Source of the DNA: Simkaniaceae bacterium
GTDB taxonomy: Bacteria; Chlamydiota; Chlamydiia; Chlamydiales; JAJFMI01
DNA length: 64,000 nucleotides
Direction: 5' to 3'
NCBI GenBank assembly: GCA_040880145.1
Contig: JBBDIZ010000029.1
Coordinates: 4,820 to 68,819, forward strand
Below, piece by piece: positions 29,660-29,848 of this stretch; within the stretch, counting starts at the first letter, position 1; every line of letters starts with the position of its first letter. A program made the translations under genes and the position numbers. Under the pieces are notes generated by a model. It ran no database searches. It was not told the origin of the DNA and was given only the letters and a program-made list of their open reading frames with translations.

Positions 29660-29848
29660 CTTGTACAATATCCTGAATTTTGTTAGAGTACCACTACCTT
29701 TAAAGGTCTACCGTGGGGCTCACGGGATGTTAAGCCTTTGGAGAGAACGGAAAACTTTTCAACAATAATTTGTTGCAAGGTTGTTCTCTGTGAATTAGGA
29801 ATCCCCTGAATTTAGTCATAGGGAGTTGTCAAACTTTTCTTATCGGTT
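29660..29848 (+). ncRNA. paralogous structured element, copy 1 (candidate ncRNA or cis-regulatory RNA; transcribed strand unknown)
   Basis: Homologous to the reverse complement of 38801-38997, with compensatory changes in hairpins. Ends about 2-15 nt before tRNA-Leu(GAG). Confidence 0.45.

Follow-up and report, generated by a model that had tools for sequence, protein, structure and literature searches.

What are the two related non-coding elements in this 64,000-nt stretch of Simkaniaceae DNA (hereafter the window)? An earlier note took them for paralogous copies of a candidate new structured RNA. Our results instead suggest, with a probability of about 0.85, that each copy is a gene-less, non-autonomous, PATE-like derivative of an IS608-type IS200/IS605 transposon encoding a TnpB guide RNA. 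On this reading, each would retain only four parts of such a transposon: a left end made of a hairpin with a T-run after it, a promoter, a TnpB guide-RNA (omegaRNA/reRNA) gene, and a right-end hairpin that lies inside the 3' part of the guide RNA and is followed by a terminal TCAA. What has been shown is that the scaffolds are homologous and covary, that they are linked to tnpB in relatives, how the ends are built, and that a related genome has one of the sites empty.

The window carries two copies of a conserved RNA scaffold

A covariance model was built from relatives, and the window was searched with filters off. Exactly two copies were found, at 29623-29832 on the plus strand (copy 1, 115.7 bits, E = 2.5e-31) and at 39075-38814 on the minus strand (copy 2, 102.6 bits, E = 1.8e-27), while the next match in the window had an E-value of 0.44. 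Two related elements had thus been recognized rightly, and the shared blocks listed for them do occur in both, but their limits had been placed at 29660-29848 and 38801-38997. The window has just two exact matches to the 20-mer GGATGTTAAGCCTTTGGAGA, at 29725-29744 (plus strand) and 38926-38945 (minus strand), and shuffled sequences had none even when three mismatches were permitted. ORFs of 61 and 97 amino acids overlap the elements mechanically; none matches a gene, and the RNA model covers both regions.

Searches of genomes, metagenomes, and viral contigs with an exact 19-mer of the scaffold recovered 40 distinct, complete scaffolds. The family ranges over Chlamydiota, gammaproteobacterial MAGs, and phage contigs, that is, across phyla and at unrelated loci, and has the invariant core GGAUGUUAAGCCUUUGGAG. 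Across 56 sequences, 97.6% of the cells at paired positions were paired (30-45% in controls with slid partners), and compensatory changes were seen in 16 of 16 pairs, values that 0 of 500 shuffles reached. Helix 1 had compensatory changes in all five of its pairs, with 98.6% of cells paired in the same 56 sequences. These alignments were fitted to the model, with helix 1 and the base of helix 3 anchored by invariant flanks; RNAalifold, run on a MAFFT alignment, found helix 1 and the helix 3 base on its own and also recovered the core helices (long-range helix, central stem, and apical hairpin). The right-end hairpin was analyzed sequence by sequence because the MAFFT columns were structurally inconsistent there. 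The transcribed strand was fixed by the many G-U pairs. The folding energy of either copy alone is ordinary (z = -1.55 and -0.58), hence the evidence for structure is comparative rather than thermodynamic.

Of the columns in the family alignment, 38 are conserved at 90% or more (19 of them fixed by the way in which relatives were retrieved), and both window copies agree with the family at every one. Both scaffolds also score as well as tnpB-linked ones. The two exact compensatory pairs reported for the 5' hairpin were confirmed (CCGTG-GGGCT-CACGG at 29711-29725 in copy 1, CCACG-GGGCT-CGTGG at 38959-38945 in copy 2), as were the apical hairpins with the same TAAT loop on different stems. Copy 1 most resembles L017 and L003 among the relatives and copy 2 resembles L038 and L022; the copies stem from two subfamilies of the element, and this accounts for their compensatory differences, which are not evidence of selection acting inside this genome. 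Of the proposed new structured RNA, the conserved structure with compensatory changes holds, whereas the new kind of RNA does not, the scaffold being that of a TnpB guide RNA.

Layout of the two copies

Copy 1 and its surroundings comprise the following features:

29619..29622, plus strand: TTAT target motif (TAM), outside the element on the left; the empty-site junction falls here
29623..29660, plus strand: degenerate left end, keeping CGATGA.. and ..GGTATATAAGTCGAACC
29661..29689, plus strand: promoter-like region (TTGTAC at 29661-29666, 17-nt spacer, TG at 29681-29682, TAGAGT at 29684-29689)
29696..29832, plus strand: guide-RNA (omegaRNA/reRNA-type) scaffold (covariance-model match, 29697-29832)
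29711..29725, plus strand: 5' hairpin (helix 1), supported by covariation
29735..29799, plus strand: RAGATH-18-like core, from RNAalifold and covariation
29802..29824, plus strand: right-end subterminal hairpin TCCCCTGA-ATTTAG-TCATAGGGA, weakened
29829..29832, plus strand: TCAA right-end cleavage motif, the final bases of copy 1, placed from the ends of relatives
29833..29849, plus strand: 17-nt flank ACTTTTCTTATCGGTTG, putative guide segment and leader of tRNA-Leu
29850..29935, plus strand: tRNA-Leu(GAG), called by ARAGORN and Rfam

In the core of copy 1, the apical hairpin CAACAA-TAAT-TTGTTG (29760-29775) and the central stem (29743-29748/29783-29788) lie inside a long-range helix, in which CCT at 29735-29737 pairs with AGG at 29797-29799. 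The RNA is predicted to start near A29696.

Copy 2 has a comparable layout:

39076..39079, minus strand: TTAT target motif flanking the left end, from homology with relatives
39020..39075, minus strand: left end, with the intact hairpin CCCACCTC-TTTA-GGGGTGGG at 39058-39039
38981..38989, minus strand: extended -10 motif TGTTAAACT, placed by its position relative to the 5' hairpin
38814..38974, minus strand: guide-RNA scaffold (covariance-model match, 38973-38841)
38794..38813, minus strand: flank CCGACTCTCCGGCCTCATGA, putative guide segment

The predicted RNA start is near A38974. The scaffold comprises the 5' hairpin, the central stem, and the apical hairpin GTTCC-TAAT-GGAAC, followed by an extra hairpin at 38868-38849 that has no counterpart in copy 1, the right-end hairpin at 38844-38825, and the terminal TCAA at 38817-38814. 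This 3' part was aligned by eye with L038 and L022. The comparison revealed that the 3' third of the two copies had previously been misaligned. TAGGGA, listed as a shared block, is the 3' arm of the right-end hairpin in copy 1 and belongs to the extra hairpin in copy 2; the true equivalents are AGGGAGTTGTCAA in copy 1 and TGGGAGGATGTCAA in copy 2.

The scaffold occupies the position of a TnpB guide RNA in relatives

In other genomes and in phage contigs, the scaffold begins at or over the stop codon of tnpB, runs in the orientation of that gene, and ends at the right end of the transposon. This is the position of a TnpB guide RNA (omegaRNA/reRNA). Retrieval at the DNA level gave 11 distinct loci in which the scaffold begins at, or overlaps, the stop codon of a gene encoding HTH_OrfB_IS605, OrfB_IS605, and Cas12f1-like_TNB domains; a tnpA gene of the Y1_Tnp type is also present in two of them, L014 (E = 3.9e-39) and L198. 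Retrieval by TnpB protein gave 32 loci, of which 17 had the scaffold immediately 3' of tnpB and on its strand. The TnpB of L014 matches the solved ISDra2 TnpB (E = 5e-59) and chain 8IAZ (E = 3e-54).

No tnpB lies near the window copies or near about 28 other distinct copies. The ratio of gene-less to tnpB-linked copies in the DNA-pattern scans (about 28 to 11) comes from a biased sample. No tnpB or tnpA was detected in the 64-kb window by tblastn, and the precomputed Pfam annotation of the genes called on two Logan contigs (L070 and L071), which overlap the window and extend past its ends, lists neither; copy 1 had no blastn match in annotated plasmids and phages. All 11 tnpB-linked copies from the DNA scans end in TTCAC, TTCAT, or TTCGA, and none has TTAT/TCAA ends. 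A viral scan with the 14-mer GAATTAGGAATCCC for a TCAA-ended, tnpB-linked copy returned at least 120 stretches, and none of the 80 loci screened matched the model. TnpB could plausibly be supplied in trans, since a single viral contig of 185 kb has a copy with both tnpA and tnpB (L198) as well as two gene-less ones (L013 and L018). A TnpB gene near L038 was also considered and rejected: it encodes a different TnpB, lies 1.7 kb away on the opposite strand, and has no scaffold of this family at its own 3' end.

Transposon ends, target motif, and an empty site

A typical gene-less copy is inserted 3' of TTAT. Its left end is IS608-like and is followed by an extended -10 motif and then by the scaffold, and it closes with a right-end hairpin and TCAA. 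Both window copies and almost all relatives have TTAT before them. Twelve copy-1-like elements are homologous from immediately 3' of (A/T)TTAT onward, and homology between copy 2 and L020, L033, L038, L051, and L056 starts 3' of ..TTAT. At the other end, all gene-less relatives finish in ..GTCAA (GTGAA in one), right after which the sequences diverge. The foot of the right-end hairpin is 8-10 nt from the element end in gene-less copies, a similar hairpin stands at the left end 16-17 nt past TTAT, and most relatives have both.

The window copies have kept these hairpins unequally. At the left end of copy 1, a gap and mismatches lie opposite the hairpin CCCCTGGCTTTAGCCATGGGG of L003, L004, L010, L049, and others, and the hairpin is either absent or replaced by a family-A unit, a separate palindromic repeat with seven matches in the window. 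The intact family-A unit reported upstream of copy 1 was thus confirmed, at 29624-29642, and occupies the place where the left-end hairpin is expected. The degenerate unit reported near copy 2 (39009-39019) is not a family-A repeat; it is part of a motif conserved in copy-2-like elements (..TCGTATTTT..). The left hairpin of copy 2 (-6.2 kcal/mol, DNA folding) has AAAA before it and GATGAGAGCGTC plus a T-rich run after it, and TTAT lies 17 nt from its foot. The right-end hairpins fold with only -2.6 (copy 1) and -1.7 kcal/mol (copy 2), compared with about -5 to -9 kcal/mol in most relatives.

In gene-less copies the bases 5' of the hairpins are AAAA with TTAT and GAAT with TCAA, and in L014-type copies they are AAAG with TTAC and GAAG with TCAC. 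The four bases 5' of the hairpins thus covary with the cleavage motifs, which is the rule described for IS608, where four bases pair with the cleavage motif, the right end is TCAA, and AAAG goes with TTAC at the left end (PMC3201880). The AAAA at the left hairpin foot of copy 2 fits its TTAT target by the same rule (PMC3201880).

The yidD/tRNA-Leu site was found empty in a related Simkaniaceae genome (GH81 protein 71% identical): 65 nt without an element, against 284 nt in the window. The bases right of the TCAA of copy 1 continue the empty-site sequence of the relative, ACTTTTCTTATCGGTTG matching ACTTTCCTTATC. For copy 2, no empty site was found; synteny in the relative stops short of this locus, and a search for EamA homologues gave best identities of 36-42% and no close orthologue. 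A look-up of the exact YidD sequence returned no record. The copies are gene-less transposon derivatives, with recognizable ends and an empty site in a relative, and not paralogous cellular genes.

Origin from a MITE of a DDE transposon was also considered and rejected. The ends (CGATGA.. or GACTGC.. against ..GTCAA) are not inverted repeats, and the flanks (TTAT|..|ACTTTT and TTAT|..|CCGACT) have no target duplication. IS200/IS605 transposons have neither terminal inverted repeats nor target duplications. The earlier note had held that its RNA would fall if the copies proved to be the termini of an IS or MITE with such repeats and duplications; in substance this is what emerged, as the copies are IS-derived, though without either hallmark.

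Two other identities for the scaffold were weighed against a TnpB guide RNA of this family. The note's own idea, a stand-alone cellular structured RNA (a small RNA, riboswitch, or similar) of Chlamydiota that is unrelated to mobile elements, would account for the strong covariation and for the lack of an Rfam family reaching its gathering score, but it is already contradicted by the linkage of the scaffold to tnpB, whose 3' end it adjoins in a large number of unrelated genomes and phage contigs. It also fits poorly with the IS608-like ends around the scaffold, the orthologous site that lacks the element in a relative, and the occurrence in different phyla at unrelated loci. Nor do the downstream contexts of the two copies, a search for recurrent neighbors having been proposed, share anything (a tRNA, and the 3' end of a convergent RDD gene), and we regard this reading as scarcely credible. 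Membership of the Rfam family RAGATH-18 (RF03064), the reRNA core of IS607-family TnpB proteins from serine-recombinase transposons, is hardly more probable and in our view very unlikely. In its favor are a weak match of copy 1 (29735-29801, 24 bits, E = 0.037), a common CCU..GGAG-stem-UGAA..AGGAA motif, and a common layout of 5' flank, core, 3' flank, and guide (PMC11061315). However, the 24.0 bits are far under the gathering score of 44.9, copy 2 and eight relatives gave no match at E up to 10, and none of ten loci matched at gathering. Moreover, full-length relatives carry a Y1 tnpA rather than a serine recombinase, and the target here is TTAT/TTAC, not AGGAG/GAGGG (PMC11061315).

Promoters and the neighboring tRNA-Leu(GAG)

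Of 29 distinct gene-less copies, 18 have the motif TGnTAnnnT 21-24 nt upstream of the 5' hairpin (mean of 0.47 and maximum of 4 in shuffles), and the motif is intact in both window copies. We infer that the promoter-like region of copy 1 and the extended -10 motif of copy 2 act as RNA promoters, although neither was called by a generic scan for sigma-70 promoters and terminators. The same scan predicted no terminator between the promoter of copy 1 and tRNA-Leu.

With copy 1 taken out, the joined flanks form TTGATC-16 nt-TAT|ACT, 14 nt upstream of the tRNA; in the relative, TTGCGA-17 nt-TAGACT takes this place, 16 nt upstream of its tRNA. Copy 1 therefore probably splits the -10 box of the tRNA-Leu(GAG) promoter. 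The promoter of copy 1 now probably serves the tRNA as well, by read-through, so that the tRNA would form the 3' part of the guide-RNA transcript. RNase P, cutting at the 5' end of the tRNA, would then leave a 17-nt guide tail on the RNA of copy 1.

Proposed mode of action, possible decay, and possible co-option

In the proposed mode of action, the elements would be transcribed and bound by TnpB, their flanks would act as guides, and the RNA of copy 1 would read through into the tRNA. The RNA would start at the internal extended -10 promoter, fold into the conserved scaffold, and run on into about 16-20 nt of flanking DNA, which would serve as the guide; for copy 1, this role of the flank is suggested by the known architecture of TnpB systems. 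A TnpB encoded elsewhere in the genome would bind the scaffold in trans and cut any empty copy of the same site that is flanked by TTAT. After excision by TnpA, such a cut would favor restoration of the element by recombination. That an element excised by TnpA is regained by recombination after a TnpB cut is the established model for IS605-family elements. Within the window, no second target was found for the guide of copy 1 or that of copy 2, the matches being at chance level. With no tnpB in the window, no left-end hairpin in copy 1, and a weak right-end hairpin in either copy, both are probably immobile, and their function may be lost as well.

How much of this activity survives bears on two further readings. 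The copies might be dead relics, with no partner TnpB or TnpA in the genome, any RNA functionless, and the sequences decaying; we rate this as a serious possibility, somewhat short of even. The lack of tnpB and tnpA in the window and in the annotation of both flanking contigs points this way, as do the lost left-end hairpin of copy 1, right-end hairpins among the weakest of the family, and guides that match only their own flanks within the window. Decay is nevertheless hard to reconcile with scaffolds that score like tnpB-linked ones (115.7 and 102.6 bits), with full agreement at the 38 highly conserved columns (19 of them fixed by retrieval), and with an intact extended -10 motif in both copies, and the part of the genome inspected amounts to only about 80 kb. 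Alternatively, the cell may have co-opted copy 1: its promoter would drive tRNA-Leu(GAG), and the scaffold would be kept as the 5' leader of the tRNA precursor, freed by RNase P. The promoter-like sequences just before the tRNA in both the rejoined flanks and the relative are consistent with this, and so are the new junction TATCGA, a poor -10 box, the lack of a predicted terminator from the element promoter to the tRNA, and the loss of the left-end hairpin, which would lock copy 1 in place. Yet both presumed tRNA promoters are predictions and weak against the consensus (9/12 and 8/12), an unrecognized promoter may lie in the 3' part of copy 1, and no gene-less copy in 27 other loci adjoins a tRNA, which would make the case a one-off accident. 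Co-option is hence a tentative reading.

A broader proposal, that promoter-plus-guide-RNA-only transposons form a self-sustaining lineage rather than occasional debris and that the cell has captured copy 1, is unlikely as a whole. If it were true, the lineage, with its conserved promoter and intact scaffold, would depend on other elements for TnpA and TnpB, or, in the case of phage-borne copies, perhaps on the host. Capture would mean that copy 1 replaced the promoter of tRNA-Leu(GAG), so that an essential tRNA would come from a guide-RNA/tRNA dicistron, with the guide of copy 1 cut back to 17 nt by RNase P. The locus of copy 1 may be a natural example of a guide RNA fused to a tRNA precursor. 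Engineered tRNA-gRNA processing systems offer a parallel.

The two conserved orphan elements in this Simkaniaceae genome should be annotated as IS200/IS605-derived guide-RNA mini-elements and not as a new RNA class. The TnpB scaffold family with this invariant core, for which Rfam has no model at threshold, occurs in several phyla and in phage contigs, often without tnpB, and its approximately 28 promoter-plus-guide-only elements provide a well-defined set for testing the use of guide RNAs in trans.

Comparison with known systems

Rfam at gathering thresholds returned only tRNAs and one tmRNA from the window and ten related loci, in keeping with the check that had been proposed: no family reached its gathering score for the elements. 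Likewise, RNase P, tmRNA, SRP, T-box, and TPP, none of which had seemed to fit, gave no match to them at E up to 10. RAGATH-18, defined as the reRNA core of IS607 TnpB (PMC11061315), resembles the scaffold in that its CCU-GGAG-stem-UGAA-AGGAA motif lies within a short long-range helix. HPnc0580 (RF02269), an uncharacterized Helicobacter pylori small RNA from dRNA-seq (PMC8322730), shares UCUA-hairpin-..GUUA.GCCUUU..GUAAGACC with the family. Its model gave weak full-length matches to the 5' half of the scaffold in five relatives (22.6-29 bits) and in copy 2 (16.9 bits), all under the gathering score of 37. Homology between HPnc0580 and the scaffold is therefore a lead, not a result.

The ends resemble those of IS608 from H. 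pylori, whose right end is cut behind TCAA, some 10 nt past the hairpin foot on its 3' side, and whose left target tetranucleotide lies 16-19 nt 5' of the left hairpin (PMC3201880). L014 equals IS608 exactly at the left end (AAAG with TTAC at 19 nt), whereas the window-type target is TTAT rather than the TTAC of IS608; the likeness was judged from published features. With the omegaRNA of ISDra2/IS608-type elements, the family has in common a scaffold that measures about 125-190 nt, adjoins the 3' end of tnpB on the same strand, and stops at the right end, as well as a guide made of flanking DNA, a right-end hairpin inside the RNA, a covarying structure, and a linked TnpB that is ISDra2-like. 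It differs in that the window copies are without tnpB, have a promoter of their own, and carry a scaffold below every Rfam threshold; RNA-guided cleavage is putative here.

Collectively, both elements belong to an already known kind, the gene-less IS200/IS605 elements (PATEs) that encode omegaRNAs. PATEs 'often encode omegaRNAs' on which TnpB must act in trans (10.1101/2023.03.14.532601). As in PATEs, insertion is 3' of a fixed tetranucleotide without duplication, the omegaRNA is kept, and TnpA and TnpB would need to be supplied in trans. PATEs also lack an ORF and have subterminal hairpins at both ends; here most relatives have both hairpins, the two window copies keep them only in part, and the ORFs that overlap these copies match no gene. 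What sets the window lineage apart is a conserved extended -10 promoter fused directly to the scaffold and, in copy 1, the missing left hairpin.

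Relatives with and without tnpB

Two non-coding elements of the window, copy 1 (+) and copy 2 (-), had been aligned in the earlier note. The shared blocks listed there are present in both regions. For one 20-mer, GGATGTTAAGCCTTTGGAGA, the window has exactly two occurrences, and shuffled sequences gave none. The 5' hairpins, CCGTG/CACGG in copy 1 (29711-29725) and CCACG/CGTGG in copy 2 (38959-38945), do differ by two exact compensatory pairs, and both apical hairpins carry a TAAT loop on unrelated stems. At gathering thresholds, an Rfam scan of the window returned four tRNAs only.

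Relatives were retrieved from three collections with an exact 19-mer of the core common to both copies, giving 12 stretches from species-representative genomes (nine real homologues), 8 from viral contigs and 44 from metagenomes. The 40 distinct full-length scaffolds (the structured RNA part of the element) from these scans fell into two classes. In 11 distinct loci, which form the tnpB-linked class, the scaffold begins at the stop codon of a ~390-aa gene or overlaps that codon; the gene is TnpB by Pfam (HTH_OrfB_IS605, OrfB_IS605 and Cas12f1-like_TNB domains). Scaffolds of this class finish in ..GTAGTTCAC or, in a few loci, TTCAT or TTCGA; one such locus, L014, has a Y1_Tnp transposase upstream too (E 3.9e-39). 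The gene-less class takes in the two window copies plus about 28 further distinct ones; it has no tnpB within 2.5 kb upstream and a scaffold ending in ..GGGAGnnGTCAA. Its sources include a Chlamydiae MAG (four copies), two gammaproteobacterial MAGs and several viral contigs. Many gene-less copies (L005, L010, L021, L029, L044 and others) carry a ~50-nt expansion (GACCGGAGGACATGGGTTG..) that brings the central stem to ~98 nt; neither window copy has this expansion, and most tnpB-linked copies lack it too.

The scaffold as a probable TnpB guide RNA

We built a covariance model of the scaffold, R1, from 12 diverse sequences with the structure set by hand; RNAalifold largely recovered the same structure independently. 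A second set of relatives was retrieved by TnpB protein similarity instead of DNA, and in 17 of these 32 loci an R1 scaffold adjoined the 3' end of tnpB in the same orientation, with TnpB identity to L014 down to about 22-38%. When all scaffolds were pooled into one alignment (56 distinct sequences), standard pairs made up 97.6% of cells, versus 30-45% with the 3' partners slid, and compensatory changes were found in all 16 pairs, at values reached by none of 500 shuffles. The transcribed strand is fixed by frequent G-U pairs; it is the tnpB-coding strand, + in copy 1 and - in copy 2. TnpB of L014 resembles the solved ISDra2 TnpB (E 5e-59) as well as chain 8IAZ (E 3e-54), an accession mentioned in PMC11061315. 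Position, orientation, end point and structure of the scaffold match the established omegaRNA/reRNA architecture, and it is most probably the guide RNA of the TnpB clade represented by L014. The earlier proposal of a new structured RNA therefore stands as to structure and covariation, but not as to novelty.

Immediately 5' of the first hairpin, tnpB-linked and phage-type copies (L008, L013, L014, L026 and L063) read ..(GAAC)UCUAC, which is complementary to GUAG(UUC), the final bases ahead of the guide. This possible pairing of 5' CUAC.. with 3' ..GUAGUUCAC suggests a long-range helix or pseudoknot; no obvious equivalent was found in the TCAA-type window copies.

Gene-less copies follow the IS608 design

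In upstream alignments, homology among independent copies starts directly after TTAT. The gene-less element then comprises, in order:

16-17 nt, the last bases AAAA or AATA
left hairpin of the type CCCC..CTTTAG..GGGG
GATATAAGCCGCC or GATGAGAGCGTC, then a T-run
extended -10 motif TGnTAnnnT, at a constant distance (21-24 nt) ahead of the 5' hairpin
scaffold
second hairpin of the same type, its foot 8-10 nt from the terminal TCAA

The TGnTAnnnT motif was found in 18 of 29 distinct copies (shuffle mean 0.47). IS608 is cleaved at two places: 3' of TTAC, which lies 19 nt 5' of its left hairpin, and at TCAA, located 10 nt 3' of its right hairpin; the four bases 5' of each hairpin foot read the cleavage site (left guide AAAG; PMC3201880). 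The anatomy of the gene-less copies is this design. They also obey the four-base rule, with covariation between classes: gene-less copies combine AAAA with TTAT and GAAT with TCAA, and in L014-type copies TTAC (19 nt) is accompanied by AAAG and TCAC by GAAG. The conserved gene-less 5' leader, ACCTTTAAAGG, is similar to the sequence around the stop codon in tnpB-linked copies (e.g. ..CTGCTTAAAAGGACTCTACC), which suggests that gene-less copies arose by internal deletion, the left-end promoter region being fused to the guide-RNA gene.

An R1 search of the window with filters off found only 29697-29832 (+) and 38973-38841 (-). The element limits are:

29623-29832, + strand: copy 1, flanked by TTAT (29619-29622) and ACTTTTC...
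39075-38814, - strand: copy 2, whose left hairpin (39058-39039) is intact and which has one hairpin more (38868-38849)

Neither scaffold deviates at the 38 columns at least 90% conserved, 19 of which the retrieval pattern itself had fixed. Copy 1 lacks the left-end hairpin, and one unit of family A, a dispersed repeat, occupies its place. Both right-end hairpins are weak (-2.6 kcal/mol in copy 1 and -1.7 in copy 2; about -5 to -9 in most relatives). The nearest relatives are L017 and L003 for copy 1, and L038 and L022, which share the extra hairpin, for copy 2. This points to two source subfamilies and not to duplication in place. A short-read assembly of the same organism (L065, Logan contig SRR27977663_110902) ends its contig 156 nt short of the EamA start on the upstream side, at about 39051 of the window, within the copy 2 left-end hairpin, as expected for a repeated element.

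The L038 copy, the nearest of all to copy 2, has an unrelated 370-aa TnpB 1.7 kb away on the opposite strand (TNB domain E 9.9e-23), and also adjoins a CSNLSGD-type repeat protein and, judged by eye, a possible recombinase-like exonuclease. These neighbours suggest a mobile or phage region. The L038 coordinates concerned are:

572-1684, + strand
2432-2953, - strand

Insertion of copy 1 upstream of tRNA-Leu(GAG)

By its neighbouring proteins, the source of the window is a Simkaniaceae MAG. The gene order yidD - tRNA-Leu(GAG) - GH81 is conserved in a relative with a GH81 protein of 71% identity. Its yidD/tRNA-Leu spacer is 65 nt with no R1 match; that of the window is 284 nt. The 210-nt copy 1 covers most of the 219-nt difference (73 versus 65 nt without the element), and the bases right of its TCAA (ACTTTTCTTATC) continue the relative's ACTTTCCTTATC. 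An empty site for copy 2 was looked for in relatives and not found.

The relative reads TTGCGA-17 nt-TAGACT, 16 nt before the tRNA (L066 3821-3864). Rejoining the window flanks (29598-29622 + 29833-29849) gives TTGATC-16 nt-TAT/ACT (slash, junction), 14 nt before the tRNA, which would put copy 1 within the probable -10 box of the promoter of this tRNA-Leu(GAG) gene. Since no terminator is predicted between the putative copy 1 promoter and the tRNA, tRNA-Leu is probably transcribed through the guide RNA and may now depend on the copy 1 promoter. RNase P cleavage of such a transcript would leave a 17-nt guide tail.

Family A itself is a separate palindromic repeat, unrelated to the element, of the form ATACCGAAAC(G/A)ACTTC..GAAGT(C/T)GTTTCGGTAT. 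Its seven hits in the window are:

13862-13880, - strand
13930-13948, + strand
18502-18520, + strand
24328-24346, + strand
28037-28055, + strand
29624-29642, + strand: half-unit at the copy 1 left-end hairpin position
33457-33475, - strand

Units form perfect hairpins (24310-24346) or inverted pairs with a ~49-nt spacer (13862-13948), often at gene ends; a REP-like element, a terminator or another mini-element are candidate natures.

Possible roles of the two copies

We consider it highly probable (roughly 0.85-0.9) that both copies are gene-less IS608-like mini-elements, each with a TnpB-type guide-RNA gene. Such a gene may be served by a trans-acting TnpB or be a plain relic. No tnpB was found in the 64-kb window, nor among the Pfam-annotated called genes of Logan contigs L070 and L071, which overlap and extend past the window ends; and no tnpB-linked copy with TTAT/TCAA ends appeared among the 11 tnpB-linked loci or the further viral matches listed. 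Use of the guide RNA in trans is plausible in principle, as a 185-kb viral contig (IMGVR_UViG_3300034684_000299) holds two gene-less copies (L013, L018) together with a full tnpA+tnpB+scaffold element (L198). L013 also contains tRNA-Asn and a tmRNA gene.

A search of the window for second targets of both putative guides matched only their own flanks, as expected of transposon ends, with no hint of a regulatory target. Copy 1 is also a candidate promoter and leader of tRNA-Leu; tRNA genes were not seen next to other gene-less copies, so this arrangement would be an accident of one insertion.

Comparison with known guide RNAs and mini-elements

At a permissive threshold, copy 2 (38885-38974, -) scored 16.9 bits against HPnc0580 (Rfam RF02269; gathering score 37), an uncharacterised small RNA of Helicobacter pylori. 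Together with copy 2, L046, L051, L056, L061 and L063 gave sub-threshold full-length matches of 16.9-29 bits, and this family may correspond to the 5' half of a TnpB guide RNA of the IS605/IS606/IS608 type. Copy 1 scored 24 bits against RAGATH-18 at a permissive threshold (gathering score 44.9). The RAGATH-18 reRNA of IS607 TnpB, with a ~50-nt 5' flank, a 73-nt core, a ~60-nt 3' flank and a 20-nt guide (PMC11061315), has the same layout as the present scaffold; however, membership was rejected, the scaffold being below threshold, linked to Y1 and not serine transposases, and associated with a different target motif. Gene-less elements with an omegaRNA have already been reported for palindrome-associated transposable elements (PATEs), gene-less IS200/IS605 derivatives that often encode omegaRNAs needing TnpB in trans (Meers et al., 10.1101/2023.03.14.532601), and the two copies add to this known kind.
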